Positions 1 through 23,658 of a DNA stretch of 54,767 nucleotides are shown piece after piece; position 1 is the stretch's first letter, and every line of letters begins with the position of its first letter. The notes beneath the pieces were generated by a model. The model had not been told where the DNA came from and made no database searches. It saw only the letters and a list, made by a program, of their open reading frames with translations. A program made the translations under genes and the position numbers. Source of the DNA: a virus (lineage: Duplodnaviria > Caudoviricetes); the IMG/VR virus record IMGVR_UViG_3300020042_011315, positions 1 through 54,767 of that record. The stretch is one strand, 5' to 3'.

Positions 1-290
1 AGGCACTCATTGATGAAGGGCTTGATCCAACCGTTGCGATGATTCGCATACTCAAGGCCAAAGTGGTGGTAACGGATCGTTCTGGGCAGCCAGTTCTCGA
101 CCAGGACGGCAAACACATGATGGTGGACGCCGTGGACAACGACACCAAGCTGCGGGTACTCAATGAGCTACTTAGCTATACACAGCCCAAACTCAAGGCG
201 ATTGAGATGAGAGTGTCCGGTCACCTGGAACTTAGCAACGACCAGCTCGATCAGCGACTTCTAGCCCTAATGGCAAAGGCGTTAGCGTGA
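1..290 (+). CDS. Terminase small subunit-like protein, 5'-truncated by the window edge
   Basis: Frame is open from the window start (ALIDEGLDPTVAMIRIL...KLRVLNELLSYTQPKLKAIE...LSNDQLDQRL). The Y-x-x-PKLKAIE motif and C-terminal tail are typical of TerS. The stop overlaps a GTG start. Confidence 0.65.
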   Translation, partial: ALIDEGLDPTVAMIRILKAKVVVTDRSGQPVLDQDGKHMMVDAVDNDTKLRVLNELLSYTQPKLKAIEMRVSGHLELSNDQLDQRLLALMAKALA

Positions 291-382
291 ACCTGGCAGC
301 TTTGAATGAGAGTGAGAAGCGCGAACTATACGAGCGGCTGGGTTGCTGTAGTTTTGCATCGTTTTTCTCCGTAAAAAAATAA
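287..382 (+). pseudogene. Truncated N-terminus of terminase large subunit (about 17 codons, then a junction)
   Basis: GTGA overlap with the terS stop. Reads MNLAALNESEKRELYE, a TerL-like first helix, then runs into unrelated sequence and stops. Confidence 0.45.
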
Positions 383-384
383 AA

Positions 385-467
385 ACTCCTAGTCAAGGAG
401 TCGTAAAAACCTTGGGAACCCGCATGTTTACTTGAGAGGCATGCGTTTTTTGTCAAGATTCTGTCAA
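385..467 (-). other. Second att-like site: integrase arm-type repeat plus core-like inverted repeat, inverted relative to attP
   Basis: 445-467 is the exact reverse complement of 18249-18271 (TTGACAGAATCTTGACAAAAAAC). It is followed on the - strand by ATGCGGG and GACTCC-N7-GGAG at 42-nt spacing (41 nt in attP). Confidence 0.7.
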
Positions 468-715
468 TACGCAGTCATTTTTTGCTCTTTAGACCTGCGA
501 TTGATTTCTTCGTTCCACATACGCTTTGGCGAAACATCCTGTTCAGGAGCTGCTTCGTTTTGCTCTTCGCTTGGCTGCAGCATCTCCATCAATGCCTGGG
601 CTGCTTCACCAATCGAATCGAACTCTTGAGTAGTTGGTTCGCTGGCTTGATCGCCTTCGTCCTCAGTCACTCGAACTGAGCCGTCATCATTAATCTCGAT
701 CGTGATGGTTTCCAT
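464..715 (-). CDS. Acidic hypothetical phage protein, first gene of the late operon
   Basis: ORF METITIEINDDGSVRV..., GGAG RBS 7 nt upstream of the ATG at 715 (GTG at 721 is possible); lies downstream of the late promoter. Confidence 0.75.
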   Translation of the reverse strand: METITIEINDDGSVRVTEDEGDQASEPTTQEFDSIGEAAQALMEMLQPSEEQNEAAPEQDVSPKRMWNEEINRRSKEQKMTAY

Positions 716-735
716 CGTCACACTCCAGAAACGAC

Positions 736-4004: not shown

Positions 4005-4496
4005 TTAAAAATCCAACTCTGCAACCAGCTTCTTCATTACAGCCCCAGCTACTTCCCTCTCCATACGAGAGATGGTCACTTCTAGCCATTCCGACGCGTC
4101 GCCAGTATGCACAAAAGGCGCTTTCCCGGCGCCCCGGCAATGCAGGCAGATTTGGTCACTTAGAACCGGTGCTCCGGGAATGACGTCGTAACCCCTACCG
4201 ACACAAGGCTTACAGACATCGTCAACATAGTGTTTAACAGCGTTGAAGGCTAGGAGCATTGCATCTGTGTATTTGACATTTCGCTTAGCCAGCATCTCAG
4301 CCAGTGACGTGACAACCTTAGAGAACTCAGCCACATCACCCGCATACTTCAATCTCCATAGGCTGACACCTATCGGGTTGGACTGCCCAACCATCCCGGT
4401 TGCTCTAACAATATCGATGTCACCAAACTCACCGTTAGCTGACTCTGCCAAGTTGCTCGAGGTCTGGCTGCGAACCATTCTTTCTTTTGTAGTCAT
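4005..4496 (-). CDS. Antitermination Q-like zinc-finger protein
   Basis: CKPCVGRG...CLHCRGAG motifs; last gene of the leftward operon before the late promoter. Confidence 0.65.
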   Translation of the reverse strand: MTTKERMVRSQTSSNLAESANGEFGDIDIVRATGMVGQSNPIGVSLWRLKYAGDVAEFSKVVTSLAEMLAKRNVKYTDAMLLAFNAVKHYVDDVCKPCVGRGYDVIPGAPVLSDQICLHCRGAGKAPFVHTGDASEWLEVTISRMEREVAGAVMKKLVAELDF

Positions 4497-5791
4497 GCAA
4501 ACTCCTTTTTGACTGCATCCAAAAGCGCTTGCTGCATGTCACCTTTGGTCGCAAGCACTTCCATAATTTGTTCATCAATCGTGTCGATGGCTACCAGGTG
4601 GTGAACCACAACCCCACTCTTTTGTCCTGTCCTGTGCAGTCTGGCGTTTGCTTGTTCATACAAGTCCAGGCTGAAAGGCAATCCAAACCAGACAATCACA
4701 TTGCCACCAACTTGAAGGCCGTCAACGCCGTGACCACCAGAAGCTGGGTGCATCAACAAAAGAGGCACTAAACCTTTTTGCCAAGATTTCAAAGATGGTT
4801 CACCATCAAAAACTAAGGCTTCGGGAAATCGCTCCAAGATTCGCGCCTGGTCATGTTGAAAGCTGGTTAAGCAGAGAACTGGCTCTCCCTGGTCAACAAT
4901 TTCTTCCAAGGCATCAAGCTTTGCATCGTGAATGTGTCGAACTACTCTGCTCTCGTTGTAGACCGCTCCATTTGCCATTTGTGCCAGCTTGCCTGCCAGT
5001 ACCCCGGCCGATACCGCAACAATGTCCTCAACCACCATTTCTTCTTTCATCTTTTCGTATTCGGTCATGTCAAAGCTAACCGTAACCACGTTATCAATCC
5101 GATCTGGCAAAACGATGTCGCTTTCGACGCTGAGCATGATGTCAGCCAAGGCTTCATGGATTTCTTTCGCTGCACCTGCTTTCAACGCCCAGGAGTAAAC
5201 GACGTGTCCGTTTCGCTTATCCGGAACAAACCACTTGTCGCGATACGCAGTAAGTGACCGGCCAAGACGTTTTCCCCAATCGAGCATGCTGATCTGTGGC
5301 CAAAGTTCAAGCAATGAGTTTGGTGCCGGTGTTCCACTCAAGATATACAACCTCTTAATCTTGTCCCGAACACTTTTAAGCGACTTCCAGCTTTTGCTGG
5401 ATCGATCTTTAAAACCCCTGTTCTCATCGATCACCACACAGTCAAACGGCCAACTCGGCAGCTCTTGCACCAACCAACTGAAGTTTTCACGGTTGATGAC
5501 GTAGATATCCGCTTCGGCAGCCAAAGCTTTTTTTCTGGCTGCGGGGTTACCAAGCAATCTCTGAATTCGAAGCTGCTTGGTCTGATTCCACTTTGCAGCC
5601 TCGGTATGCCAAACCAGCTCAGCTACCCGCTTTGGCGCAACAACCAAAGTCTTTTGAGCCTTCATAGCCTGAAGCGCAAGCAAAGTAATCACTGTTTTTC
5701 CAGCGCCCATCCTGAGCGCCAATAGATGTGCTGGCTTATCAACCATTCGTTTTACTGCCAAGCTCTGATATGGCCTAGGTGAGAAATTCAT
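4493..5791 (-). CDS. SNF2-family (DEAD/H-like) phage helicase
   Basis: PRPYQ, MGAGKT (Walker A), VVIDE, SGTPAPN and QANARLHRTGQ motifs. Likely start MNFSPRPYQ. Confidence 0.9.
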   Translation of the reverse strand: MNFSPRPYQSLAVKRMVDKPAHLLALRMGAGKTVITLLALQAMKAQKTLVVAPKRVAELVWHTEAAKWNQTKQLRIQRLLGNPAARKKALAAEADIYVINRENFSWLVQELPSWPFDCVVIDENRGFKDRSSKSWKSLKSVRDKIKRLYILSGTPAPNSLLELWPQISMLDWGKRLGRSLTAYRDKWFVPDKRNGHVVYSWALKAGAAKEIHEALADIMLSVESDIVLPDRIDNVVTVSFDMTEYEKMKEEMVVEDIVAVSAGVLAGKLAQMANGAVYNESRVVRHIHDAKLDALEEIVDQGEPVLCLTSFQHDQARILERFPEALVFDGEPSLKSWQKGLVPLLLMHPASGGHGVDGLQVGGNVIVWFGLPFSLDLYEQANARLHRTGQKSGVVVHHLVAIDTIDEQIMEVLATKGDMQQALLDAVKKEFA

Positions 5792-6050
5792 CAACTGCCT
5801 CCTTTGAATCAAGCCAAGCTGCTCGGCAGCCCAACTGTTTTAAAACTTCCAAGGTGTGAAGTTGCAACTTGGACGGTTTAGCGCCTGGCCGCTTAACCTC
5901 CACAAAAAAAACTTCACCTTGGGGTAACACGCCAATTCGGTCTGGCACACCGGCATGGCCGGGACTGACCCACTTAAAACACTGACCCCCCATCGCTTTG
6001 ACCCGTTTAACCAAATACCTCTCAACATCAATTTCCTGACAACCTGACAT
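5775..6050 (-). CDS. VRR-NUC domain nuclease
   Basis: E-x-x-VE...KWVSPG..GVPDR...FVEVKRPG (PD-(D/E)xK). Confidence 0.9.
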   Translation of the reverse strand: MSGCQEIDVERYLVKRVKAMGGQCFKWVSPGHAGVPDRIGVLPQGEVFFVEVKRPGAKPSKLQLHTLEVLKQLGCRAAWLDSKEAVDEFLT

Positions 6051-6215
6051 GTCAAGCGCCTTTTAAGTCGTCAACATATGTATTTTTTTCTTTTGAAAAA
6101 AAGTTACTACATGTGAGCAACCCGTAAAACTTGTCAGGCTTGTCAGGAAATACACATTTCTCCTATGAAAAGGTGCTCTGACAAGTTGCCTGACAAGTTG
6201 AGTTCCTGACAAGTT
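6035..6215. repeat. Iteron cluster, putative replication origin
   Basis: CTGACA(AG) repeats in both orientations (6035-6049, 6130-6147 inverted, three copies at 6178-6215) flanking an A/T tract, directly downstream of the primase gene. Confidence 0.65.
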
Positions 6216-8667
6216 AGACCCCTAAGAAATCCATGCCGGTGGTTGAATCAAGCAACTTGACCGCTTCATCTACTGACAAGTCCTCACCTTGAAGCGTCCA
6301 GACTCGACATGCTTCACCGTTCCACCACCGTCTTGTCAGGAATCTGAACCCCTTGGCCGTCAACATTCGGTTAACTCGAGTGGTTTGAAATGGCTCATCG
6401 GTCTTAGCTCGAAGTGCTCTTGAGAGGTGCTGTGATGAAACAACTTGTTTATGAACGCCAACAGCACCACTCTCAATCAACTCCTCAGCCAAGATGTCCA
6501 ACTCAGACTTCGACATCTCAACTACGGTGTCTTTTGTGGAAGTGTGTGGAGCACGTCCATCGGCTTTGAACTCGTCATGCAACGCAAGGCTCAAGAACCA
6601 TTGACGCAGTGCGCCTGCATTGTTTTGAATCGCAAGGAAAAGCTTTTTGTAGTAACCCTCATCGGTCAAGCGCTTAACTTCGGCAAGCCCAATGGATGAG
6701 CTTATGAACATGAACCGCCGGTCTTCGTCTTCAACCGGAGCACCATCCAAGTAGTTTGAAAGCACCAAATAGTTCGTTGAATTCGGCGCCACGTAACTGG
6801 GTTTGCCCTTGGGGTGAATTTCAACTTCGGTGTTTGTGATGAAAGGCTTCAAACGGTTCATCACGTCAAACCGGTTGTGGCCGTGCTGCTTCATCTCTTC
6901 AATCGTTGTCAGGGCGTAGCCCATCGCCCAATCGGTAAAGTTGCTCTCAAGGGTCGATCCATTTAGCGAGCGCACGTTTTGGCCACCCATGCAGTGACCA
7001 AGCAGCTCACCAAAAAAAGACTTACCGTCACCAGGGGGTCCATGCAGGTATGGAGTCCAGCGAATTTTTACGCCCGGGCGCTGCACGTTATGCGCAACCC
7101 AGGACATAAAGATACCCCTCTCCCGTTCATTTTTGATGTACTTTGCAAAATGGGTTTTGACAAGCTCAATAGCTTCTAAGTTTTCTGCACTGAGCTGCGC
7201 AGGCATCTCTGGCTCAGAGCCAACGCGGTACAGATTGACCCAAAGCTTGCCAAACATAGTGAACATTGAGCCGCAAGCTGGCATATAGGCTTTGTGCGCG
7301 ACCACTGGAATGCGCCACTCCTCAAGCGCAAACAAATCGGCTTGTTCGCGGTCGCCAAAGAAGTTCGTTGGCATATTGCGGTTGAACATGCTCTTGAAAC
7401 CCTTGCTGGTAACTTCTTGCTTGGATTCAAGGTTAAGGAACTTATCAACGTCCGTCACATACACCCAAGGCTTTACCCAACCAGGTGCGTTTGATGAACC
7501 ACCCGATGGCACGACTTGTGAATTCACACCAAGCAACTCACGAACTGTTTTGGTTGGAAGCTTTGCGCCTGTTAGCGCCTTATGTTTTACGTTCCAAGTT
7601 GCCACCAATATTTCTTTTTGGTTTACATCTAAAAGCTTATCCTGGCTGATGACCTTGGCAACCTTGGTGCGAAGCGCCATGTCATCCGCGCAGTCATCAA
7701 TAAGCTTTTTTGCGGCTTCAACAGCACCCCTCTTTTGTTGCTCTAGTGCTTCTTCGCGCGCGCTCTTAGTTGTCTTGATAATCCAACCAAGCGTTACAAC
7801 CCCAGTGGTTTTTTTGCTTTTGAAAGATTTCCACTTCTTATCTTCGTAATCACGGTTTGGATTTTTCTTAGGTGACTGAGCAAACATCTCATGCCAAATC
7901 TCCAAACCTTCGTCATCACCATCGAACTGGTGATGCAACGCTTGGCCAACTTTGAGCCAGTCGTTGTAGTGCATGGACAGCTCGAGGTATGGCGCGATCT
8001 CGTCTCTAATGCGGTCTGCGTCCCAGCCTTCGATTGGAGCTTTGAGATTAAGCAGATCATCGACAGTGCTATCGACTGATTCATTCTTAGCACCAGTCAA
8101 CTCAACAAGCCAACCAACGTCTTGCTCAAATATCGGTAGCGCGTTGTGACCATTCAAGCTGTGACCCGTGACCGTGAAAAATCTGCCAGTGTTATGTTTG
8201 TACAGCTCGATGTCGATTTGCGTATCTTGCTCACCCAAGGTGTCTTTGATCCCCTTTTTCTGCGTTGATGCAGCCAGGTTGGAAATCGTGAAAAGCTTGA
8301 TGCCCGTACCAGACGGGCTAACCTCGGCGTAGCCATCAACTTGCGCCAAAGTTTTGTTGGCTAGTTCAGTGAGTGCCCCAGTGGCCGTATCACGGCAATC
8401 ATCAAGATCAATGCCATCGATGTTTTCTGTGAGCACAATGCCAATACCGTAATCAGGATTGAGCATTGCGAAATCCCAAACCTCATCAAAGCTAGCCCAG
8501 GTCTTTGGGTCACTGGTCGACGCTCTTTTGATGCTCGTTGTGAAAGGCATCTTTTTCCAGACACCATCTTCAAAGATGTAGCCCCATAAAACCCAGTGTG
8601 GGTGGGCACGAATGTCGTCGGGTATGCCTCCGAAATTAACCGGCAAGGCGTGAGGACGGGCGATCAT
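6214..8667 (-). CDS. Primase-polymerase/helicase (NrS-1-like prim-pol + PriCT-2 + SF3/DUF5906 helicase)
   Basis: GIDLDDC and EVSPSGTG prim-pol motifs; YNDWLKVGQALH PriCT-2; GPPGDGKS Walker A. Confidence 0.9.
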   Translation of the reverse strand: MIARPHALPVNFGGIPDDIRAHPHWVLWGYIFEDGVWKKMPFTTSIKRASTSDPKTWASFDEVWDFAMLNPDYGIGIVLTENIDGIDLDDCRDTATGALTELANKTLAQVDGYAEVSPSGTGIKLFTISNLAASTQKKGIKDTLGEQDTQIDIELYKHNTGRFFTVTGHSLNGHNALPIFEQDVGWLVELTGAKNESVDSTVDDLLNLKAPIEGWDADRIRDEIAPYLELSMHYNDWLKVGQALHHQFDGDDEGLEIWHEMFAQSPKKNPNRDYEDKKWKSFKSKKTTGVVTLGWIIKTTKSAREEALEQQKRGAVEAAKKLIDDCADDMALRTKVAKVISQDKLLDVNQKEILVATWNVKHKALTGAKLPTKTVRELLGVNSQVVPSGGSSNAPGWVKPWVYVTDVDKFLNLESKQEVTSKGFKSMFNRNMPTNFFGDREQADLFALEEWRIPVVAHKAYMPACGSMFTMFGKLWVNLYRVGSEPEMPAQLSAENLEAIELVKTHFAKYIKNERERGIFMSWVAHNVQRPGVKIRWTPYLHGPPGDGKSFFGELLGHCMGGQNVRSLNGSTLESNFTDWAMGYALTTIEEMKQHGHNRFDVMNRLKPFITNTEVEIHPKGKPSYVAPNSTNYLVLSNYLDGAPVEDEDRRFMFISSSIGLAEVKRLTDEGYYKKLFLAIQNNAGALRQWFLSLALHDEFKADGRAPHTSTKDTVVEMSKSELDILAEELIESGAVGVHKQVVSSQHLSRALRAKTDEPFQTTRVNRMLTAKGFRFLTRRWWNGEACRVWTLQGEDLSVDEAVKLLDSTTGMDFLGV

Positions 8668-8906: not shown

Positions 8907-9098
8907 TTAGTGTTTTATCGGATTAACGGGGTTGAGCAGTTTTAAAATTGCAGCCTGGACATGCTGCTGGAACGCTGTGACGGCGTTCGAGTCGGCCCTA
9001 AGAGTGATGACGTAACTGTTGTCATCAAAACTCATAGTCCCACCTTGTCCAAGAAATTCCAAATCTTCCATTGACAGGCTGATTGGTATTTCTTTCAC
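8907..9098 (-). CDS. Hypothetical phage protein
   Basis: 63-aa ORF coupled to the cro stop (GTGA overlap). Confidence 0.6.
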   Translation of the reverse strand: MKEIPISLSMEDLEFLGQGGTMSFDDNSYVITLRADSNAVTAFQQHVQAAILKLLNPVNPIKH

Positions 9099-9304
9099 CT
9101 AAACCCACTCCAGTCCAAATCTGGACGAAGTGCTTCTGGGCCAATGTTGAGTCCCTTTTCTTTCGCCATTCGTAATAAGCTGGGTATCCGGTCCATTGGA
9201 ATCCCGCGGCTTTTCCAGCCGGAAATAGCTTGGGGCTTGACCCCCAAACGCCGACCAATTAGGCTCGGGCCGCCCAGTTTTGAAAGAATTTGGTGCTCAG
9301 TCAT
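9095..9304 (-). CDS. cro: Cro-like HTH regulator
   Basis: LGGPSLIGRRLGVKPQAISGWKSRGIP...LRPDLDW (YdaS/Cro-type); divergent from the repressor gene. Confidence 0.8.
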   Translation of the reverse strand: MTEHQILSKLGGPSLIGRRLGVKPQAISGWKSRGIPMDRIPSLLRMAKEKGLNIGPEALRPDLDWSGFR

Positions 9305-9417
9305 GCCCTTAACTTTAGTGGATTTACAACAAATATTCAAATATTTACGGCAAAAAACACTTTACAGTACTTTTCACGACTTATACTTCTACTCTATTCC
9401 ACTTTTACAGACAACTG

Positions 9418-10671
9418 ATGCCTAAGTTAATCAATCTGGCAGGGAAAATCAAAGACACTAGGAAGCGACTGGGGATGACTCAAAAACAATTTATTTTTGA
9501 AGTCAGCAATAAGCTTTACCTGAGCACAACATTGAACGAGTCACTTGCCTCTCAGTGGGAATCAAACCTTAAAAACCGGGCTAAGCCCACCGATGAACAG
9601 CTTGCTGCAATCGCACAACTAACAAGCCGGCCATGGGAAACAATGTGGTGGTTTATGCGGGACGACATTGACCAAAAACGCGGGTACGAGCTTTACCCAA
9701 ATGGTAAATTCACCATAGCACCCCCCGACCTTACTCCTGATCAAGAAGAAGAACTCCTCGCTCAATTAGCTGCCGAGAATCGAGCTGCGTACAGCGAACC
9801 AATCGCCAAAGAATTAACCTGTTGGTTGAAAGAACCAAGCACAATGTGGTCGCTTTACCACCCACCAGAACCAAAACCCATAGTCCCTGTGGAAAGGGCT
9901 TTGGGCATCGCGGGTCTGCTCCCTGGCACTCCATGCAAACATTGCGGATATAAAAATCAACAAATTGCAATTGCTTGTGGCAGTTGCGGCGCCGCAATCG
10001 ACGCAACAGGCATTCGTGGCGGGCTTCTTTCAGACACCAAACCTACCAACGATCAGGGGTCAAGTGATTCTTTAGAAAAAGCCGTTAGCGACTTAAACAA
10101 AGATCAAAAAACGCTTTTAAAACGTGGCGGCTTAGTTGTTTCACGCGGCCCAGTGGCTAGTGAATTTGTGGAATTCCCAGCTTTACCTCCTTCACGACCA
10201 CAAACAAGTGAGCATGATTTTTCAGTGGATGCTGAATTAGAAAATATTAAAAATTTTTGGTCAGCAATAAAGTTTTTTGCAAACAACGATCATTACTTAT
10301 CTACAGAGCACTTTAACCAAAGAATTCAAACGGGCGCACTATCCCAGTACGTACACTTCTTTGATGGTGACCGAGCAATACAGGTTGTAAGTATTGACCG
10401 AACCAGCGAGATACGAAAACTCCGAAAAACATTGCAAACCAGAATGATGGAGCTTTGCTTCATTGATAGGATGAAAAAAAGGACCTCCAAGAAACTGATC
10501 CTGGTGAGCACCTATGAAAAAGGTTTAAAGCTACACCGCTTAGAAGAGCACCTCGCTGAATTGATCCACAGCTCAGAACTTTTAGGGGTTCAAGTTCAGT
10601 TTGCCAGCGGGCCACTTGAGGTAGCTGAGAAAATTGCGTCGTTCGGGACGCAAAAGGCATCTGAAGAATAA
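9418..10671 (+). CDS. CI-like XRE repressor with central zinc ribbon and uncharacterised C-terminal domain
   Basis: IKDTRKRLGMTQKQF...ASQWE HTH; CKHC-x10-CGSC; position opposite cro. Confidence 0.7.
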   Translation: MPKLINLAGKIKDTRKRLGMTQKQFIFEVSNKLYLSTTLNESLASQWESNLKNRAKPTDEQLAAIAQLTSRPWETMWWFMRDDIDQKRGYELYPNGKFTIAPPDLTPDQEEELLAQLAAENRAAYSEPIAKELTCWLKEPSTMWSLYHPPEPKPIVPVERALGIAGLLPGTPCKHCGYKNQQIAIACGSCGAAIDATGIRGGLLSDTKPTNDQGSSDSLEKAVSDLNKDQKTLLKRGGLVVSRGPVASEFVEFPALPPSRPQTSEHDFSVDAELENIKNFWSAIKFFANNDHYLSTEHFNQRIQTGALSQYVHFFDGDRAIQVVSIDRTSEIRKLRKTLQTRMMELCFIDRMKKRTSKKLILVSTYEKGLKLHRLEEHLAELIHSSELLGVQVQFASGPLEVAEKIASFGTQKASEE

Positions 10672-11872: not shown

Positions 11873-12109
11873 GTGACTGACCGTGATCTATTCGCGCTTG
11901 CAGCAATGCATGCGTTTTTAACTAATTCAACTTGTTTGAACTATGTCGATGATAAATATGGACAGTGCTTCATGCTTGCTGTTGAGCAAGGTCAAGGTAC
12001 AAAAATTGGTTTAGAAGATGGGGCTGGGGAAGAGTACCACTGGAGCCGTTATTGGGCTGACCAGGCATATCAGATGGCAGATGAAATGGTAAGGCAGGGC
12101 AAGCTATGA
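11873..12109 (+). CDS. Hypothetical phage protein (RD.FA..AM...AY..AD.M family)
   Basis: GGAG RBS before the GTG at 11873; motif DRDLFALAAM...AYQMADEM is common in phages. Confidence 0.7.
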   Translation: MTDRDLFALAAMHAFLTNSTCLNYVDDKYGQCFMLAVEQGQGTKIGLEDGAGEEYHWSRYWADQAYQMADEMVRQGKL

Positions 12110-13251
12110 GCGCTCACGCCAAACTCTCTGCCTCTGGTTCTGATCGCTGGAAAAACTGCACTCGGAGCATTGCATTCGAGGCGCAGTTCCCAGAGTCACC
12201 AAACACTTCGCACTCTGAGCGTGGAAGTTTTGGACATTGCATTTTTGAAAATGAACTTAACACCTATTTAGGTCAAAAAGTAAAAGACTTGCCTCAGGAG
12301 CTGCTGCATTACGACACACCAGAGCTACGTGAGCAAGTAAAAGTTGCGGTTCAATTTTGTATTGAGCTTATAAAGAAAGTTCAAGCGGAAACAAGTTCTG
12401 CAACCGTATCAGTTGAACAAAGAGTTGATTTTTCAAGATGGGTACCCGAAGGGTTTGGTACTGCTGATTTGCTAATCATTGCAGATGGCACAGCCTATGT
12501 TATTGATCTAAAACTTGGACAAGGTATACGCGTTGTTGCTCAGGACAATAGCCAGTTAAGGCTTTATAGCGTTGGTGTTTTAAATACCTTTGGCAGCCTT
12601 TTTGAAATTGATCAAATCGAAATGATCATTGTCCAGCCGCCCCTGAATAACATCAGCCGCGAAACATTAAGGACCCAAGAGCTTCTCACATGGGTTGAAA
12701 CCGAAATTGAACCTAAAGCAAAACTGGCTTGGGCCGGTGAAGGTGAGTTCGTACCAGGCGACCATTGTCGGTGGTGCAAAGGTAAGGCTCAGTGCCCTAC
12801 CCGCAATGAATCAAATCTCGCAATAGTTCGACATGATTTTGCAGAACCCGCATCAATGAGCGATTCTGATATCGCTGAGGTACTTACCAAGGCACAACAA
12901 CTTTACGGTTGGGTTCGTGACTTGGAAGATTTCGCTTACTTACAAGCAATGGCCGGACGCAAATGGCCAGGCTTCAAGTTAGTCGAGGCCCGTGGCAGTC
13001 GCAAATTTACAGACGTAACAGCTGCTGCACAAGCGCTTATTGATGCTGGCATTTCTGAAAGTGAAGTGTTTGAGCGCAACTTGCGTTCACTCACTGGACT
13101 TGAGTCAAAGCTAGGCAAGAACAAGTTTGCCCAAATCCTTGGCGACCTGGTCGCTAAGTCTCCCGGCAAACCAACTCTCGTGACCGTTGAAGACAAACGG
13201 CCCGAGTTTCATCCACTCGCAGCTGCCGCTGCGGATTTTTCAAATAGCTAA
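12106..13251 (+). CDS. DUF2800 Cas4-like PD-(D/E)xK exonuclease
   Basis: HAKLSASGSDRWKNC, FGTAD, VIDLKLG, QLRLY, GDHCRWCK...C motifs. Confidence 0.9.
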   Translation: MSAHAKLSASGSDRWKNCTRSIAFEAQFPESPNTSHSERGSFGHCIFENELNTYLGQKVKDLPQELLHYDTPELREQVKVAVQFCIELIKKVQAETSSATVSVEQRVDFSRWVPEGFGTADLLIIADGTAYVIDLKLGQGIRVVAQDNSQLRLYSVGVLNTFGSLFEIDQIEMIIVQPPLNNISRETLRTQELLTWVETEIEPKAKLAWAGEGEFVPGDHCRWCKGKAQCPTRNESNLAIVRHDFAEPASMSDSDIAEVLTKAQQLYGWVRDLEDFAYLQAMAGRKWPGFKLVEARGSRKFTDVTAAAQALIDAGISESEVFERNLRSLTGLESKLGKNKFAQILGDLVAKSPGKPTLVTVEDKRPEFHPLAAAAADFSNS

Positions 13252-13263
13252 ACCGAGAAATAT

Positions 13264-13815
13264 ATGACCAAAACCGAAAAACCTTTGAACACCAAAGTTG
13301 TGACAGGCAAAGTCCGATTGAGTTACGCCCACATCTGGGAACCACACAGCTCGACACCAGAGCAAGAACCAAGGTATTCCAGTGCAATCTTGATTCCTAA
13401 GACCGACACCGTTACGTTGAAGAAAATTAACGACGCAATTGATGCCGCCAAAGAGCAAGGCAAATTGAAATGGGGCGGGAAAATTCCTGCCGGTATTAAA
13501 TTACCTCTGCGCGATGGCGATGTTGAGAAAGATGATCCGGCTTACAAGGGGCACTACTTTTTTAATGCCAATAGCAAATCAAAACCAAACATTGTTGACA
13601 GCAATACAAATGCCATCCTCGATAAAAGCGAAGTATACAGCGGTTGCTATGTGCGTGTATCAGTGAACTTTTACCCATTCAACGCAAACTCAACAAGCAA
13701 AGGCGTTGCGGTTGGTCTCAACTCAATACAGAAGCTTGAAGACGGCGAACCGTTCAGCGGCCGAAGTTCTGCTGCGGCTGACTTCACTGAACCAGTTGAA
13801 GACTTCCTTGCTTAA
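13264..13815 (+). CDS. DUF2815 single-stranded DNA-binding protein
   Basis: VRLSYAHIWEP, PLRDGD, VYSGCY, GLNSIQKLEDGEP and an acidic C-terminus. Confidence 0.9.
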   Translation: MTKTEKPLNTKVVTGKVRLSYAHIWEPHSSTPEQEPRYSSAILIPKTDTVTLKKINDAIDAAKEQGKLKWGGKIPAGIKLPLRDGDVEKDDPAYKGHYFFNANSKSKPNIVDSNTNAILDKSEVYSGCYVRVSVNFYPFNANSTSKGVAVGLNSIQKLEDGEPFSGRSSAAADFTEPVEDFLA

Positions 13816-14171
13816 TGGCAGAAGTGATGGCGTTTGTTGGGCTGTACCCTGCCCTCTTTTCTGAGGAAGCGGAATGGTTCGAGTTGAACTGGCATGTTGT
13901 GCAAGCGTTTGAAGCGGTCACCCTAGGGTTGATTAAGCAAGGACGCAAGCACTATTCATCCAGAACAATTTTGGAAGTTCTTCGGCACGAATCGCTATTG
14001 CGTGGTGCCGGAGACAACTTTAAGTTGAACAACAACCATGCGCCTGATCTCGCAAGAGCTTTTGTGATTCTCTATCCCGATCAAATTGATTTTTGGGAAT
14101 ATCGACGAGACAACCATCACGAGTTTAAGCAAGCAATTGCTGACTTATCAAATTTAACTTTTTTGGAATGA
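13815..14171 (+). CDS. Conserved hypothetical phage protein
   Basis: GRKHYSSRTILEVLRH...FKLNNNH motif; translationally coupled. Confidence 0.75.
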   Translation: MAEVMAFVGLYPALFSEEAEWFELNWHVVQAFEAVTLGLIKQGRKHYSSRTILEVLRHESLLRGAGDNFKLNNNHAPDLARAFVILYPDQIDFWEYRRDNHHEFKQAIADLSNLTFLE

Positions 14172-14356
14172 CCATGAACTTTATCAATATTCAATTTACT
14201 TTACCTGGCGCTGAGCTGATGATTTCTGCCCTTCGAAAGTTACCGCATGAAACAGTTGATCCACTCCTGCATGAGGTAGTAATGCAATACAAAAGTGAAG
14301 TTGAGCGTTTACAGAAACAAGTTTCTGTAGATACAGCAGATGTTGTAGATGCTTAA
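14168..14356 (+). CDS. Hypothetical phage protein
   Basis: Coupled 62-aa ORF (ATGA overlap). Confidence 0.6.
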   Translation: MTMNFINIQFTLPGAELMISALRKLPHETVDPLLHEVVMQYKSEVERLQKQVSVDTADVVDA

Positions 14357-14358
14357 GT

Positions 14359-14442
14359 ATGACAACCGAGGAGCTGTGGATTTTGGTACGTCATTACGAA
14401 CACCTGATCGCAGTTCTTCTTAAACAAATTGAAGAGGCATAA
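14359..14442 (+). CDS. 27-aa micro-protein MTTEELWILVRHYEHLIAVLLKQIEEA
   Basis: Fills the gap between neighbouring genes exactly; below the ORF-track size cut-off. Confidence 0.4.
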   Translation: MTTEELWILVRHYEHLIAVLLKQIEEA

Positions 14443-14444
14443 AT

Positions 14445-14774
14445 ATGAATACACATCCAAACGGACGTGAGTTAGCGGCTGAAGGTGCAAGCGTGGCTGC
14501 AGATCATGCAGATGACGAATACGGTTTCTGGTCTATCTATGCAGAAGAGTACTTTCGTCGATTCATCAAAGAAAAACCAAATTGCACATTTATGACTGAA
14601 CAAGTGCGCGAATTTGCTGAGCGCGACGGCTTTGAACCGCCACCAGACAAACGTGCATGGGGATCGGTTGCTGCCAACATGTCGCGTTGCGGCGTAATTA
14701 AGAAACTTGGCTATAGCCAGAGCACGATACCTTCTCACCACGCTGGTATCAAAACATTGTGGACACAACCTTGA
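14445..14774 (+). CDS. Conserved hypothetical phage protein
   Basis: GAGG RBS; F-x-TEQVR...PP.DKRAWG...H....LW motif. Confidence 0.75.
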   Translation: MNTHPNGRELAAEGASVAADHADDEYGFWSIYAEEYFRRFIKEKPNCTFMTEQVREFAERDGFEPPPDKRAWGSVAANMSRCGVIKKLGYSQSTIPSHHAGIKTLWTQP

Positions 14775-16741
14775 AAACACTACGCGTTGATATTGAAACC
14801 TATAGCAGTGAAGATCTGCGTAAATGTGGTGTCTACCGTTACGCCGAAGCGCATGACTTTGAAATCTTGCTATTTGGCTACGCATACGATGACGGCCCAG
14901 TTCACATCATTGACTTTGCAAGCGGTGAGTCAATGCCTCCTGAACTGATGGCCGATCTAAATAATCCAGATGTAATCAAAACAGCTTTTAATGCGGCATT
15001 TGAGATTGCCTGCCTTAACGCACATTTCTTTATAACGTTGGATGCTAAGCAATGGCGCTGTACAAGTGTTCACGCATTAACACTTGGCTTGCCTGGAAGC
15101 CTGGCTGAGGTTGGAGCAGTTGTACAACTCCCCAAAGACCATCAAAAAATGATGGGCTGGACACTCATTAAATACTTCTGTATGCCGTGCCTTCCAACAA
15201 AAGCCAATAACGAGCGTACCCGGAATTTACCTAACCATGCGCCTGAGAAGTGGAAAGAATTTAAAGCGTATTGCGTTGGTGATGTGCTTGCTGAAAGATT
15301 TGTTGCTCTAAAGCTGGATCTCTTCCCCGTACCTGAGCGTGAGCAAGACCTATGGGTTCTGGATCAACGAATGAACTCGACGGGAGTTTTAGTTGACAAA
15401 GCATTTATTGAAAACGCTATTGCGATTGGCAGCAATGTTAAGGAAAGCCAATTGGCGCAGGCGACAGCGTTGACTGGGCTTGATAACCCAAACAGTCGCA
15501 ACCAACTATTAGCTTGGTTGCAATTGACTGAAGAAGGAGTTACGGATTTAACAAAAAAATCAATCCCAGGAATCTTGGAAAAAACTGACAGCCACATCGT
15601 AAAAGAAGTGCTCGAGTTGCGTCAGGAGCTTGCGAAAACCAGCGTGACCAAGTACGACGCAATGCTCAGGTGTGTGTGCTCTGACGGCCGCATCAAGGGG
15701 CTTACAAGGTTCTATGGAGCGAACCGAACTGGCCGTTGGGCTGGACAACTTGTACAGGTCCAAAACCTGCCACAGAACCACCTACGCGACCTCGATGCTG
15801 CCAGACAGCTAGTCCAGCAGGGTGACCTTGAAACCTTACAGATGATGTTTGGCAACGTACCAGACACCCTATCTCAGCTCGTTCGGACTGCGTTCGTCGG
15901 CCCATTTATTGTGGTTGATTTCAATGCCATTGAAGCTCGGGTTCTGGCTTGGATGTCCAACTGCCAATGGCGAATGGATGTATTCAATACACATATGAAA
16001 ATCTACGAAGCCTCGGCTGAGCAGATGTTTAAGCTGCGCCCTGGCAGCGTGGACAAAAAGTCACCGTATCGGCAAAAAGGCAAGATCGCTGAGTTGGCGC
16101 TGGGCTATGGCGGTGGAGCTGGGGCACTAAAAACTATGGGTGCACTGGAGATGGGGCTCACAGAAGATGAGCTAGAACCCATCAAAGTTGCTTGGCGAAA
16201 AGCTAATCCAGAAATTGTGCAGTTTTGGTACGCGTGTGAAGGCGCAGTAAAACGGGCAATCATTGAGCGCAAAACTCAAACCCTAATCATTGGCCAAAGT
16301 TCTGAACTCAAATTCAGTTATGAGTCTGGATTTCTTTTTATTGAACTGCCAAGCAAAAGGCGACTTGCCTATGTAAAGCCACGCATTGAGAAAGAAGACT
16401 TGGTCAAGGATGGCTATACGGTTGCCAGGACAGACTCAATTACCTACGAAGGCAATGACCAGAAGACCAAGAAATGGTCACGCATTGGCACCTACGGTGG
16501 CAAGCTTTGCGAAAACATCACCCAAGCAGTGGCAAGAGATTGCTTACGTGAAGCGATGTTTGCGGTCTCAGATGCTGGGTATCAGATGGTGATGACGGTG
16601 CACGACGAGATCGTCATCGAGACTGAAACAGGGCTTGAAGCTATTACTGAAATTATGTCGCGCCCTATTGGCTGGGCTTTAGGTCTACCTCTTAAAGCTG
16701 ATGGTTTTGCCACGCCTTATTACTGCAAGGAAATTACATGA
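14771..16741 (+). CDS. Family A DNA polymerase with 3'-5' exonuclease
   Basis: DIETYS (ExoI), AFNAAFE, RTGRWAG, DFNAIEARV (motif A), RQKGKIAELALGYG (motif B), TVHDEIV (motif C). TTG start overlaps the upstream stop. Confidence 0.95.
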   Translation: MKTLRVDIETYSSEDLRKCGVYRYAEAHDFEILLFGYAYDDGPVHIIDFASGESMPPELMADLNNPDVIKTAFNAAFEIACLNAHFFITLDAKQWRCTSVHALTLGLPGSLAEVGAVVQLPKDHQKMMGWTLIKYFCMPCLPTKANNERTRNLPNHAPEKWKEFKAYCVGDVLAERFVALKLDLFPVPEREQDLWVLDQRMNSTGVLVDKAFIENAIAIGSNVKESQLAQATALTGLDNPNSRNQLLAWLQLTEEGVTDLTKKSIPGILEKTDSHIVKEVLELRQELAKTSVTKYDAMLRCVCSDGRIKGLTRFYGANRTGRWAGQLVQVQNLPQNHLRDLDAARQLVQQGDLETLQMMFGNVPDTLSQLVRTAFVGPFIVVDFNAIEARVLAWMSNCQWRMDVFNTHMKIYEASAEQMFKLRPGSVDKKSPYRQKGKIAELALGYGGGAGALKTMGALEMGLTEDELEPIKVAWRKANPEIVQFWYACEGAVKRAIIERKTQTLIIGQSSELKFSYESGFLFIELPSKRRLAYVKPRIEKEDLVKDGYTVARTDSITYEGNDQKTKKWSRIGTYGGKLCENITQAVARDCLREAMFAVSDAGYQMVMTVHDEIVIETETGLEAITEIMSRPIGWALGLPLKADGFATPYYCKEIT

Positions 16742-16935
16742 CCGCTGACCCCAAACTCGTAGGCCCAGAGTATTTGGCTAATCTACTTCACAAAACAGTG
16801 GCAACTATTCGAGCTGACGCACAGCGTCGCCCGCAGAGCCTGCCGCCAAGAATGCGCATTCCAGAATCAAGAAAGCTTTTGTGGCTTGAAGAGGATGTAC
16901 TGAAATGGCTGGATAAACACCGCACCCGTGGCTAG
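16738..16935 (+). CDS. Excisionase/AlpA-like winged-helix protein
   Basis: LANLLHKTVATIR...LPP...LLWLEEDVLKWL; adjacent to the integrase. Confidence 0.7.
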   Translation: MTADPKLVGPEYLANLLHKTVATIRADAQRRPQSLPPRMRIPESRKLLWLEEDVLKWLDKHRTRG

Positions 16936-16956: not shown

Positions 16957-17136
16957 ATGGCGATGAAATGCCCAAAATGTGGTGCGGATTCAGATGTACA
17001 GGAAACCAGAACGTGGTCGTCTGGTAACGTGGCTAGACGAACTTATAAATGCTACGGTTGTCCTAAGACAAAAGAAGTCCATCGGTTTAATACCCATGAG
17101 CGAATCGCACCGGATCGAAAAAAATCTGAATCTTGA
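16957..17136 (+). CDS. NrdR/Ogr-like zinc-ribbon protein (59 aa)
   Basis: AGGAG RBS; MAMKCPKCG...ETR...RRTYKCYGC...HRFNTHE. Not in the ORF track. Confidence 0.7.
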   Translation: MAMKCPKCGADSDVQETRTWSSGNVARRTYKCYGCPKTKEVHRFNTHERIAPDRKKSES

Positions 17137-17177
17137 AGATGATTGCGCTAGACGCATGGCCTAGCTCCTTCAAATTA

Positions 17178-18212
17178 CTAAGCGTCCAACCTAGCAGCCA
17201 TCTCTAAAGTGGTCGGGTTGTAATATCGTTGCAATGACTTTAACGACCGGTGGCCAGTCATAGCAGCAAGCTCCAACACATTTGGAAACTTCTGTGACAA
17301 GCGAGTTGCCGCTTCATGGCGCATATCGTGAAATCGCAAGTTATCTGATAGGCCAGCAGCCTTTCTTACTTCTCGGAAATAAACACCAAGGCTACCAACT
17401 GGAGGAAATATTTTCTCACCTGGGTCGCGTTCTGCAGTTAGCAGCTCAAAATATTCCATTGCATTTTTTGAAAGCGGCACCTTGCGAGGATCACCGTTTT
17501 TTGTTCTTGCTAAATAGACCATACGTTGGTCAGGATGAAAGTCTGATACTTTTAATTTGCAAATTTCGCCAACCCTCATTGCAGTCTCGACAGCCACCAG
17601 TAATGCCCAGCCAACGTAATCTTTAGTTTTTGCCGGTCGAACGTCTGACTTAAAGCCTGACGCCTTAAGCATCTTTTGAATGTCTTTCTCAGTCCAGCGA
17701 ATTTCGCGACGAACATCTGAATCTTTTGGTCGAACTTCTGCAACGACCGGATTTTGGATTGAAATCCTTTTGGTTTTGATTGCTTGAGTAAAAACAGATG
17801 AAATGGTTGTTAGCTCCCGTGTAACAGAAGCCGGCTGTATTTCACGCAACCTACGTTCTGTCCACTCCTCGATGTCAGCCGGTCTTATTTGATTGACGCG
17901 CCTGTTCATAAACTCAGCCGTAGACAACAACCGTTTAGCCGTATTACGTTCGCCTTTGTTTGGGTCTTCTTCGCCCTTTTTGGGTTTGGCCGGAATTACT
18001 TTGTCGATGTGGTTTTGAAATAGCTCAGCAACAGTAAGCCCTTTACCAAGCGACGGGTCAAGGCTCTCGCCCTTTGACATTTTTGTTTCTTGCTCTCTAG
18101 CCCACTTTTCAGCTTCACTTTTTTTCTCAAAGATATCTGAGATGGGTGCGTGCCCAACTTTAATGATTCGGCAACGCCATTTGCCTTTGCCGTATTTTGT
18201 GATCGATGCCAT
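17178..18212 (-). CDS. int: Tyrosine recombinase / phage integrase (Rci/HP1-like)
   Basis: TAMRVGE (R), TKNG (K), FHDMRH (HxxR), TGH, QRYY (Y). Confidence 0.95.
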   Translation of the reverse strand: MASITKYGKGKWRCRIIKVGHAPISDIFEKKSEAEKWAREQETKMSKGESLDPSLGKGLTVAELFQNHIDKVIPAKPKKGEEDPNKGERNTAKRLLSTAEFMNRRVNQIRPADIEEWTERRLREIQPASVTRELTTISSVFTQAIKTKRISIQNPVVAEVRPKDSDVRREIRWTEKDIQKMLKASGFKSDVRPAKTKDYVGWALLVAVETAMRVGEICKLKVSDFHPDQRMVYLARTKNGDPRKVPLSKNAMEYFELLTAERDPGEKIFPPVGSLGVYFREVRKAAGLSDNLRFHDMRHEAATRLSQKFPNVLELAAMTGHRSLKSLQRYYNPTTLEMAARLDA

Positions 18213-18248
18213 AATTCGGATCCTTTCCTGTTGTCAATAAAGGAAAGT

Positions 18249-18469
18249 TTGACAGAATCTTGACAAAAAACAAGGGATCTATAGGCAGAATGCGGGCTAC
18301 AGCCGGTTATCTGACTCCAGGTCGAGGAGCCAGATGGCATTTTTAGTCACTGGGAAAAATGGAAAAGTTGTTATATATCAACAACTTAACGATACTTAAC
18401 AAAACTCCATTAGACCCCATTAGACCCCGGCACTTGACAAAATCTTGACAAAATTAATCTTGACAAAAT
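18249..18469 (+). other. attP: left arm, tRNA-Asn-like 3' core, IHF site, Xis-like repeats, right arm
   Basis: Core GACTCCAGGTCGAGGAGCCA (18313-18332); CTTGACAAAA-type arm repeats at 18249-18271 and three copies at 18433-18469; exact IHF consensus TATCAACAACTTA (18376-18388); CCATTAGACC x2 (18407-18426). Confidence 0.85.
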
Positions 18470-18657
18470 TTTTGCAAGCGTTGTTTTAATGCATTTCATA
18501 GCCCCAACTGCTATTGAACACCTAGTTGGAAATGTTTTACCGAATTTATGGTTAGCTGAGATTGCGGGTACGTGGGTTTAGCTGGCAGTTCGAGACGAAT
18601 AAATTTAAACGTTTTTGAGGCATACACTTCGCCAAACAAACTAAAAGAGATCAAAAC

Positions 18658-19055
18658 ATGAATGCACGTCGTCTGCTTACTGTCGCGGTCTTTTGTTTAC
18701 TCCCTCTCTCTTCTTTCGCGGCTAATCCTTGTAATTGCATTGGGGACGCTAGACCAGCGGCCCTTGCGACGCGCGTCCTGGTGGAGCAGCAGATGCACGT
18801 CCAGGTGGCCCAGCAGATGCACGTCCAGGTGGAGCGTTCGACGCACGCCCAGGTGGGGCACGTGATTCTCGCCCTGGGGGTCCTGCAGATGCTCGCCCCG
18901 GGGGCGCACTTGATGCACGGCCCGGTAGTCCAGCCGATTCTCGCCCTGGTGGCCCCGCAGACGCTAGCCCCGGTGGTGCATGTGACGCAAGACCCGGTGG
19001 GCCATGTGATTCGCGTCCAGGCGGAGGATGGGACTGTCCGGCCGTATGTAGATAA
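18658..19055 (+). pseudogene. Frameshifted secreted DARPGG-repeat protein
   Basis: Signal peptide, then a 1-nt deletion near 18757. The shifted frame gives 12 D(A/S)RPGGxx repeats ending WDCPAVCR-stop just before the next RBS. Confidence 0.75.
18745..19032 (+). repeat. 24-bp degenerate coding tandem repeat (12 units)
   Basis: GAYGCNCGNCCNGGNGGN-type units; locally GC-rich within an AT-rich island. Confidence 0.85.
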
Positions 19056-19070
19056 AAAGGAGTTAAATAC

Positions 19071-19391
19071 ATGAAAAACAAACTTTTTCTCATACTTATG
19101 CTTAACTGTTGTTTTTGTTTACCAGCATTTAGCCAAGTTACTAATATTGGAAATTCCGATTGTGGTGAGTGGGTAGCAACCTCAAAGACGAATCCTGCTA
19201 TGAGGGCTTGGCTTCTTGGATTTATGAGTGGTGTCAACGCTGGACTTTCCAATCCAAAAAATGACCGACTTTCGAAGATAAATTCTGCCGCACAAATCTT
19301 TTTGTGGATGGATAACTATTGTGCAAAAAATCCCCTTAAAAGTGTTCACGAAGGTGGCAATGAGTTGTTTCGCGAGTTGGGAAAAAATTGA
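19071..19391 (+). CDS. Secreted small disulfide helical protein (HdeA/Rap1a-like)
   Basis: Signal peptide; CGEW...AWLLGFMSG...WMDNYCAKNPL pattern; AAGGAG RBS. Confidence 0.7.
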   Translation: MKNKLFLILMLNCCFCLPAFSQVTNIGNSDCGEWVATSKTNPAMRAWLLGFMSGVNAGLSNPKNDRLSKINSAAQIFLWMDNYCAKNPLKSVHEGGNELFRELGKN

Positions 19392-19538
19392 CACGAATAA
19401 TCGGTCTAGTGCAAGGTCAAGGTCAAACAGCACAAAGCTAGGTACCCAATTTGTAAATCGGATGGTATGTTTGTCAGTGATTTGTGGTTAGATGTGCAAA
19501 CCGCTTAGTACGGTGAGTCCCTAGACAGAAGGAAAACT

Positions 19539-19934
19539 ATGTCACGTAAAAATCTTTACTTTTTATTACTTGTTGCAATCGGCGTTTCAAGTTGCGCCCC
19601 AATGCCATTGAGCACTGCTGAGATGTCTTCTAAGCCAACAGGGGTACTTTGTGCAATTTATTCAACACAGAGTCATCCAAACTACTACGATAACCGCATT
19701 AAAAATACCTTAGCGGCTCGCGGTCAAGATGAATGTACGACTCCACAAGGCATGGCAAATCAACGTGCTTTAGCCGCACAAGAATTTCAGCAGTCGATGC
19801 AGATGCTGCAGTACAGCAACCAACTTATGCAAATGGGGCAGCCCAGAGTTTTGGCCCCACCCACCCCGCCATCCCAACCAATTAACTGCGTTAGCAGGGC
19901 CCAAGGAAGTCAAGTAGTTACTAATTGCAATTAA
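19539..19934 (+). CDS. Lipoprotein
   Basis: Lipobox VSSC; Q-rich helix; C-terminal INC.S...VTNCN motif. Confidence 0.75.
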   Translation: MSRKNLYFLLLVAIGVSSCAPMPLSTAEMSSKPTGVLCAIYSTQSHPNYYDNRIKNTLAARGQDECTTPQGMANQRALAAQEFQQSMQMLQYSNQLMQMGQPRVLAPPTPPSQPINCVSRAQGSQVVTNCN

Positions 19935-19986
19935 CTGATAATTTTTTTAGTAAAAACTTTGGCAAAAACATTAGTGCATCAATGAA

Positions 19987-20439
19987 ATGACAAAAACAAT
20001 TGAGATACCGCTGAATAAATGGAGTGCTGCAATTGACAGTGCCGGCAGTGAACTACTGTTTGAGGGTCCTACACAAATTAAGGCAAATGGCGATCAACTA
20101 CTTGCAAGATTCGTTGACCGCTTAAATTCCACGATAGTAATATCAGTTAAAAACACCCATCACGACGAAAGCACTTACGAAATTAATATTGGAAAAGATA
20201 TACAACCAGTTTCAAAAGTCCAGATTTATTGCGAACACTATCAACTTACCCATCTCTATCAATTGATTCAACAGTCCAACATAAGGTATCCGGAATTAAA
20301 GCAAGGTATGTGTCTAAGGCTTGTTTTAAAAGAGAGTCTATCGGCACCAATAAAAAACACCTTTAAGATTGATTATTGGTTAATTGTTTCAGATAGCTTT
20401 TTAGATAATGATCTCTACACAGAGGATTCAGATGTTTAG
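19987..20439 (+). CDS. Hypothetical protein
   Basis: 150-aa ORF in a co-oriented array. Confidence 0.65.
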   Translation: MTKTIEIPLNKWSAAIDSAGSELLFEGPTQIKANGDQLLARFVDRLNSTIVISVKNTHHDESTYEINIGKDIQPVSKVQIYCEHYQLTHLYQLIQQSNIRYPELKQGMCLRLVLKESLSAPIKNTFKIDYWLIVSDSFLDNDLYTEDSDV

Positions 20440-21647: not shown

Positions 21648-21649
21648 AA

Positions 21650-21964
21650 ATGCAAACTTATAAAGCACAAATTGTCAGAAAAATCTTTGATGGAAGAGAT
21701 TTTAAAAGTTCGAAAATCATGGCTTCGACAATGATAGAAATAGAACTACCCTTCGCTCCATTTCAAGGATTAAACATTGCAATAATTTACCCAGAAGAAA
21801 TTAAATCTGTACTGTGGAAACCAACAGAAAAACAATTCGCGTGCTTTTTAGAAGACTGCTATTTTGCTTCTACTGTTATGAATTCAATGACGCTTGAAGA
21901 AAGAATTGAAGAAGATATTTCTAACGGATATAAATTGCTTTTTAAACAAGATTTACCAAATTGA
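21650..21964 (+). CDS. Hypothetical protein
   Basis: 104-aa ORF; IELPFAPF motif. Confidence 0.65.
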   Translation: MQTYKAQIVRKIFDGRDFKSSKIMASTMIEIELPFAPFQGLNIAIIYPEEIKSVLWKPTEKQFACFLEDCYFASTVMNSMTLEERIEEDISNGYKLLFKQDLPN

Positions 21965-22009
21965 TCGGCACTCCAAGTATCACACTCATTTATTTAATTT
22001 TGGTTTCTA

Positions 22010-23598: not shown

Positions 23599-23658
23599 AG
23601 TAAGTCTAAGACACTTTCTAGAATAACATTGCTCTACAAACGAACTGAGAATATTTAA

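Follow-up and report, generated by a model that had tools for sequence, protein, structure and literature searches.

Does a partial, inverted copy of a phage attachment site, lying 17.8 kb from attP and apparently at the entrance to the packaging genes, recombine with attP, serve some other purpose, or do nothing at all? The original prediction, drawn from the sequence of this DNA, described such a copy (site 2 below) and offered three options for it: (a) a switchable attP that acts by inversion, (b) a non-recombining integrase-binding site that also reads as a terminator, or (c) a relic. Here we describe the anatomy of the two sites, the genes around them, their conservation and variation among related phages, and weigh what site 2 may be.

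The phage and its integration genes

The stretch of DNA analysed, called the window, is the whole IMG/VR record IMGVR_UViG_3300020042_011315, a linear sequence of 54,767 nt with a G+C content of 47%, estimated by CheckV to be 96% complete. The phage is temperate and freshwater, and the metagenome runs containing window sequence are mostly from freshwater or lakes. Its nearest cultured relatives in the phage GenBank collection, Rhizobium, Xylella (Xfas53) and Achromobacter phages, have a terL that is ~55-60% identical by tblastn, and a blastn of 1-1000 and 17100-18700 against the same collection gave no match. Two uncultured relatives recur throughout: G001 (IMGVR_UViG_3300023184_005978, 41.8 kb), whose integrase is 69% identical to that of the window and whose contig starts with the left half of attP, and the more distant G005 (integrase 48% and terL 75% identical, 100% complete). 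The main genes and modules of the window are as follows.

4005-4496 (-): Q-like ORF (phrog_127, E 9.6e-6, a weak match)
4493-5812 (-): helicase
6214-8667 (-): primase
9095-9340 (-): Cro-like gene (YdaS and P22_Cro, E 5e-8 and 1e-4)
12106-16741 (+): exonuclease, gp2.5-like SSB and family-A DNA polymerase
16738-16935 (+): candidate excisionase (RDF), 65 aa, 92% identical in G001 and 50% in G005
17178-18212 (-): tyrosine integrase (Int), 344 aa (phrog_1, E 9.9e-50; Pfam Phage_integrase, E 1.7e-25)
18658-24123 (+): small ORFs without assignment
53745-54767 (-), down to ~25777: structural genes, from a cut portal gene onwards

The integrase also has a Pfam Arm-DNA-bind_4 match that falls below the cut-off (E 0.005). 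We take the 65-aa ORF at 16738-16935 to resemble AlpA/Xis-type proteins; it matched no Pfam family at E<=0.01, and its counterpart in G001 lies 4.7 kb from int. The Cro-like gene is divergent from a 417-aa ORF at 9418-10671 (+), for which zinc-ribbon matches only were obtained, weak and sub-threshold, and this divergent pair may be the lysis-lysogeny switch region. One ORF of 2748 aa (27321-35567, -) lies in the structural module.

Anatomy of attP

The attachment site next to int is made up of four elements.

18249-18271 (+): P arm, two arm-type repeats, 36 nt upstream of the int start codon
18290-18296 (+): ATGCGGG box
18313-18331 (+): core GACTCC-AGGTCGA-GGAGCC, of which 18313-18329 is the GACTCC-N7-GGAG part
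18433-18468 (+): P' arm, three CTTGACAAAA repeats

Two arm repeats on one side and three on the other thus surround the core, and an 18-nt island of the core, CTCCAGGTCGAGGAGCCA, is identical in the window and G001 while its flanks have diverged. With its conserved core flanked left and right by arm repeats and a tyrosine integrase gene alongside, 18249-18468 has the build of a functional attP. A promoter scan around attP gave chance-level matches only.

Two direct CCATTAGACC repeats (18409-18430), placed between the core of attP and its P' arm repeats, have no counterpart at site 2 and may be an accessory-factor site. At 18331-18332, G001 departs from the window straight after the common core GGAGCCA, and one 660-nt contig of the X2 run matches 17710-18332 and then continues with 37 nt unlike the window. 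This divergence fits the core as a crossover boundary, with either a prophage junction or a different P' side beyond it. Moreover, in L127, a prophage of a Comamonadaceae MAG with a 45% identical integrase, CCCGCAT is found upstream of int beside that prophage's own TTGTGCAA-type repeats (5880-5895), and the box may be a conserved P-arm feature of this integrase family.

Searching host genomes for an attachment site, as the original prediction had proposed, was done with the attP core, and its 17-nt form was found in none of 401 sampled genomes of the order of G007. In IMG/VR, the 18-nt core occurs in G001 and in two unrelated coding matches, and a 15-nt core with one mismatch allowed gave only two mismatched matches in G007 and G008, fewer than the control. 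No tRNA or tmRNA was detected in the window or at the int loci of relatives, nor does the attP core fit a tRNA T-arm or anticodon arm by eye. An integrase scan of genome contigs found no close lysogen, the best integrated integrases being 48% and 45% identical. For neither site did an attB come to light.

Anatomy of site 2

At the left end of the window, the minus strand carries an arm, a box and a core-like repeat in the same order as the left part of attP.

445-467 (-): arm, two direct 11-nt arm-type repeats, TTGACAGAATC and TTGACAAAAAAC
419-425 (-): ATGCGGG box, kept as CATGCGGGTT in every site 2 copy
386-402 (-): core-like inverted repeat GACTCC-TTGACTA-GGAG
373-385 (-): T-run 3' of the site 2 hairpin, TTTTTATTTTTTT on the minus strand

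The inverted arm copy of the original prediction is indeed perfect: 445-467 (-) matches the left (P) arm of attP at 18249-18271 (+) in 23 of 23 positions, and the pair is the sole perfect inverted repeat of at least 18 nt in the window. A 20-nt arm pattern has three matches in the window, with 0.01 expected, and repeats of the CTTGACAAAA type are confined there to 448-467, 18249-18268 and 18433-18468. The arm repeats of site 2 are consequently one-sided, whereas those of a functional attP flank the core on both sides. The shared ATGCGGG element and GACTCC-N7-GGAG core that had been described were likewise found at both sites, at 419-425 and 386-402 (-) and at 18290-18296 and 18313-18329 (+). 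The pattern GRCTCC-N7-GGAG matches three times in the window (0.10 expected), only at site 2 and the attP core, the latter being read on both strands. The box-to-core spacer is exactly 16 nt at site 2 and at attP, in the window and G001 alike, and direct comparison bore out the predicted figures for the arm-to-core distance (42 nt at site 2, 41 nt at attP) and for the 7-nt overlaps, TTGACTA and AGGTCGA, which share 3 of 7 positions.

The likeness extends beyond the arm. Outside it, a local alignment of the two copies in the window scores 24, against 14.1 +/- 2.5 for shuffled sequences, 9 of 2000 of which reach 24; for G001, site 2 against attP scores 46, and 0 of 2000 shuffles reach that score. 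The two G001 sites align without gaps from the arm through the left half-site, with similarity ending within the overlap, and there is no similarity between site 2 and attP past GGAG. In layout, site 2 appears to resemble attR (P-O-B'), with a P arm and a core, attP homology that ends in the overlap, no P' arm, and a different, apparently unconstrained 7-nt spacer. An attR would have host DNA on its B' side and stand at a prophage end; the B' side of site 2 is occupied by the phage genes ORF57-terS-terL.

Genes beside site 2 and the left end of the window

The immediate surroundings of site 2 in the window consist of one complete gene, the beginning of another and a segment that belongs elsewhere.

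464-721 (-): ORF85, encoding a small acidic protein, the last gene before site 2
331-359 (-): first 29 nt of ORF57, the rest being cut off by a chimeric join
1-334 (+): inverted chimeric segment, with the C-terminal part of terS (3-290) and the first 16 codons of terL (287-334)

The stop codon of ORF85 falls within the first arm repeat of site 2. ORF85 is 81-86% identical in 3 relatives and has homologues in a group of phages whose terL is 75-77% identical; it matched no family in PHROG or Pfam.

In G001, ORF85, site 2, ORF57, terS (151 aa) and terL (480 aa) follow one another on one strand. The window-type metagenome contig L209 has the same gene order, and a full 57-codon ORF57 follows site 2 in both. 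In the window, the C-terminal part of terS and codons 1-16 of terL lie on the opposite strand, fused head-to-head to the 29th nt of ORF57, and CGAG at 331-334 is common to both sides of the join (4 nt of microhomology). Contigs from three other runs (X2, X3 and X5) carry the ORF57 sequence on past 329/331, and those of X3 and X5 also carry terL on beyond 334. We read 1-334 as an inverted chimeric contig end that would have no bearing on site 2, from whose core the join lies 50-55 nt away. With bases 1-334 taken as chimeric, the window lacks the natural left flank of site 2, and gene order in the related contigs indicates that the natural place of site 2 is directly upstream of the ORF57-terS-terL packaging genes. 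To place site 2 in the late operon, as the original prediction did, is right for this natural arrangement, seen in G001 and L209, the window's own left end being chimeric.

Distribution of site 2 and variation among its copies

Relatives do keep the second site, a point that had been put forward for checking. The element, of ~107 nt, is present in 11 other contigs (6 from IMG/VR and 5 further metagenome contigs, told apart by their lengths and retrieved with search patterns that leave out the arm), in each case in the same place between ORF85 and ORF57-terS-terL. It is compact, reaching from the ORF85 stop to the ORF57 ribosome site. The arm is in view in 10 copies, nine of which have GGGACAAAAAAGGGACAAAT, the GGGACA type of G001, and one of which (L209) has the TTGACA type of the window.

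Variation among the copies is unevenly spread. Both spacers, the 7-nt loop and the T-run vary, while no variation is seen in the CATGCGGGTT box, in the CTCC/GGAG half-sites or, within each type, in the arms (10 copies with the arm in view). Three versions of the loop occur among strains, TTGACTA, TTGCCTA and TAGCCCA, and the stems are kept. The overlap of attP, AGGTCGA, is identical in the window and G001, whereas the spacer of site 2 is not fixed; the overlap of a functional attP is held constant by its identity with the chromosomal attB, and site 2 has three spacer versions among close strains.

More distant phages do without the element. In G005, ORF85 and ORF57 are ~17 nt apart, and the arm repeats of this phage, TGCACAAC, are found only at its attP. 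Within the 75-77% terL group, ORF85 and ORF57 are nearly adjacent in 6 of the 7 loci where both were found, and the seventh locus has an extra small ORF between them. Since these distant relatives lack the element, site 2 appears as a ~107-nt insertion specific to the clade of the window and G001. Regarding a third arm type, a pattern of the box-core geometry retrieved from IMG/VR only the known group and 4 unrelated matches, and a metagenome scan yielded 7 records, all of the two known types.

Co-variation of the arms with attP

The arm of site 2 changes together with that of attP, which answers another question raised by the original prediction, whether the arm of the second site co-varies with the integrase and attP. 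Comparing the site 2 arm with the P arm of the same genome gives 0 mismatches in 23 positions for the window and 3 in 23 for G001 (whose P arm, GGGACAAAAAGGGGACAAATAAC, is of the G001 type and not the window type), whereas between the lineages 10 of 23 positions differ at site 2 and 8 of 23 in the P arm. The left core half-site keeps step, being GACTCC at both sites of the window and GGCTCC at both sites of G001. This comparison covers two lineages, the window type, comprising the window and L209, and the G001 type, with nine copies that include arms, and both sites are visible in a single G001-type genome, G001 itself.

The 40-nt block from box to core follows another pattern, as orthologues share 37 and 30 of 40 positions and paralogues 24-29 of 40. 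Paralogue-like in this block and alike in their arms within each genome, the two sites appear to be old paralogues of which the arms alone have been kept alike, so that the identity of the arms at site 2 and attP seems to be actively kept. The 23/23 identity in the window includes positions unlikely to matter for binding and could stem from gene conversion rather than selection; copying between the sites and selection are not separable with certainty.

Which protein reads the arms is suggested by what has changed between the lineages. The N-terminal part of the integrase is 29/55 identical between the window and G001 (by hand count), against 69% overall, while the candidate RDF is 92% identical. 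Int being the most-changed protein and also the expected arm reader, this comparison points to Int, and not the small Xis-like protein, as the likely reader of the arms.

Terminator-like features and the late leader

The site 2 hairpin and its T-run were scored as terminator-like on the minus strand (7 pairs, 3 of them G-C, with the tail TTTATTTTTT), and no terminator-like site was found at the attP core. In G001-type copies the hairpin has G-U pairs and a broken T-run, and the TAGCCCA variants have their T-run 6 nt away, with the half-sites kept. The persistence of the half-sites in these variants suggests that conservation acts on protein binding rather than on termination alone. RNA folds of site 2 and of the attP region are unremarkable (z -1.5 to +0.3).

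Window-type copies have a further hairpin on the plus strand, at 421-445, in which CGCATG and CATGCG lie within a 9-pair stem followed by TTTTTT, again terminator-like. It overlaps the box, abuts the arm and is absent from G001-type copies.

Upstream of ORF85, the window has features of a late leader.

849-820 (-): candidate late promoter TTGACC-18-TAAATT
781-765 and 756-738 (-): two terminator-like hairpins between the candidate promoter and ORF85

A promoter-like site followed by two tandem terminator-like hairpins before ORF85 is also found in the distant relative G005 (L072 1290-1460), and this apparently conserved layout is reminiscent of a Q-dependent late promoter.

What site 2 may be

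We give an about even chance to the reading that site 2 arose long ago as a paralogue of attP's left half and is kept as a non-recombining docking site for Int at the entrance to the late/packaging operon. Under this reading, an element of ~107 nt would have been inserted between ORF85 and ORF57-terS-terL in one clade of freshwater temperate phages. The N-domain of Int would bind the arm repeats of site 2 and its catalytic domains the two core half-sites, with a cofactor probably sitting on the ATGCGGG box. The bound complex would then rest on a weak intrinsic terminator that late transcription must pass. By occupying the site, abundant Int could impede or tune read-through towards the packaging genes; alternatively, the site could just act as a buffer for free Int. 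Int as the binder of site 2, and any effect on transcription, are what we infer, set beside the observed anatomy, conservation, arm co-variation, spacer variability and lack of rearranged forms. Among the options of the original prediction, the second, in which Int binds without recombining at a site that is also terminator-like, appears to be the best fit to the arm co-variation, the constant box and half-sites around a variable spacer, and the terminator-like hairpin. Counting against a docking site are the phages that manage without the element (G005 and the 75-77% terL group), a co-variation seen in two lineages, a 23/23 identity that gene conversion could also give, a putative terminator with only 3 G-C pairs and, in the TAGCCCA variants, a displaced T-run, unremarkable RNA folds, a weak Q-like call and an arm-binding domain match below threshold.

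A more elaborate arrangement is possible, if unlikely. An attR-like complex might be built at site 2 by Int, with the small, conserved Xis-like protein sitting on the box, and might pair with attP or, in the prophage, with attL while no strands are exchanged. The resulting roadblock or 17.8-kb loop would tie entry into the late genes to the integration machinery. We know of no checkpoint of this kind, a roadblock or loop built by the recombinase, described for tyrosine integrases.

We are similarly doubtful that site 2 is neutral, without function and left behind when the P-arm half was duplicated long ago, by Int or illegitimately, with its arms kept alike by occasional gene conversion. Such an origin would agree with the way attP homology ends inside the overlap, as in a recombination product, with the 23/23 identity in the window, which covers positions that differ among the P' repeats, and with the lack of the element in G005 and the 75-77% terL group. 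However, the tract of identity breaks off abruptly at the arm, and the ORF85 side has no homology that would support conversion. No copy has a decayed arm, box or half-site, while spacers, loop and T-run vary, and the compact element is retained in 11 of the 11 other contigs found by patterns free of the arm. The arm co-variation makes the relic option of the original prediction less likely.

It seems quite improbable to us that site 2 is a terminator with a different binder. The hairpin would then be the plain terminator at the head of the late operon, and the direct repeats would be recognised not by Int but by another protein, such as an Apl/Cox-type excisionase with a double role at attP and in transcription. 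In their direct orientation and 11-nt spacing the repeats are like RDF sites (PMC7498355). The hairpin is terminator-like, and a candidate RDF gene is at hand at 16738-16935. Yet the repeats are present on both arms of attP, in 2 and 3 copies, and repeats on both arms are the arm-type pattern of heterobivalent integrases, RDFs having a one-arm pattern. An RDF operator would consist of direct repeats a helical turn apart that change with the RDF; the 11-nt phasing is found and the co-change is not, as the 65-aa ORF, itself a candidate RDF only, is 92% identical across lineages whose repeats differ at 8-10 of 23 positions. Furthermore, copies with a displaced T-run still have intact core half-sites.

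An active recombination site, at which Int would invert the 17.8-kb early region by recombining site 2 with attP, or which would serve as an alternative attP for another chromosomal target, is very improbable, and the switchable attP of the original prediction found no support. Site 2 does combine a P arm with a complete core-type inverted repeat, inverted relative to attP, and its left core half-site changes in step with attP. Against recombination stand an overlap identical to that of attP at 3 of 7 positions, with three spacer versions among strains, and the missing P' arm; no partner site with the site 2 spacer and a P' arm was found in the window. An invertible segment would occur in both orientations, with the crossover inside the repeats. 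The ORF57 start is reached in 9 contigs, and ORF57 lies on the core side in 9 of 9, that is, in a single orientation in every contig with enough flank; int-to-ORF85 order and orientation are the same in G001 and the window. Inversion junctions had been proposed as a check, and contigs of 4 runs contain no core-to-core joint of 385-405 to 18313-18331, though contigs can miss or drop rare forms. The sole rearrangement in the window, at 331-334, is outside the core.

We also give very little credence to a packaging-related site, in which repeats and hairpin beside terS would be part of a pac/cos recognition region: the position directly upstream of ORF57-terS-terL would suit this, but these repeats are also present around the attP core beside int, the lineages have 95% identical terS (in the part seen) and different repeats, and the element is missing in relatives with a 75% identical terL.

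Comparison with known systems

Site 2 shares with the attP and attR sites of lambda-type (heterobivalent) tyrosine integrases its arm-type direct repeats set apart from a core of two inverted half-sites with a 7-nt spacer, in the P-O-B' arrangement of attR. It differs in lying between phage genes and not at a prophage end, and in its spacer, which departs from that of attP in 4 of 7 positions and is not the same in all strains. Arm and core sites of integrases are usually regarded solely as parts of att sites. The statement in the original prediction that no phage system with this layout has been described agrees with our literature search, in which the open-access text yielded no second arm-plus-core site inside a phage genome.

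The surroundings of site 2 recall the PR'-tR'-Q region of lambda, where terminators at the head of the late operon are read through by an antiterminator. In the window phage, too, the packaging genes come after a promoter-like site, tandem terminators, a small leader gene and one more terminator-like hairpin, with a weakly matched Q-like ORF upstream. To our knowledge, no lambda terminator is known to carry integrase sites, and the Q assignment in the window phage is weak.

Recombination proteins that act at a second, transcriptional site are represented by dual-purpose excisionases such as Cox of P2, which resembles Apl of phage 186 in this respect. The repeats to which Apl binds are direct and helically phased, and lie at att as well as at pR-pL (PMC7498355). 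Site 2 would be alike in that a single recombination protein would use such repeats at att and also at a further site with a role in transcription. Site 2 differs in adding a full core-type inverted repeat and a box; its repeats, moreover, are present in both arms of attP and follow Int rather than the candidate RDF in their changes. In KplE1, intS is repressed by IntS and TorI, and attL overlaps the promoter (PMC2951348). The parallel lies in recombination proteins that regulate transcription through att-type sites, and the attP of the window also abuts the int start; the difference is that the regulatory sites of KplE1 are att itself, and here a separate copy lies 17.8 kb off, before packaging genes.

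If the preferred reading, a docking site for Int, is true, a conserved, non-recombining site that tracks the arms of attP and stands before the packaging genes would be a natural instance of an integrase that has taken on a regulatory role outside att. The co-evolved arm specificities, of the TTGACA and GGGACA types on closely related integrases, would moreover be useful for studying how arm recognition changes.
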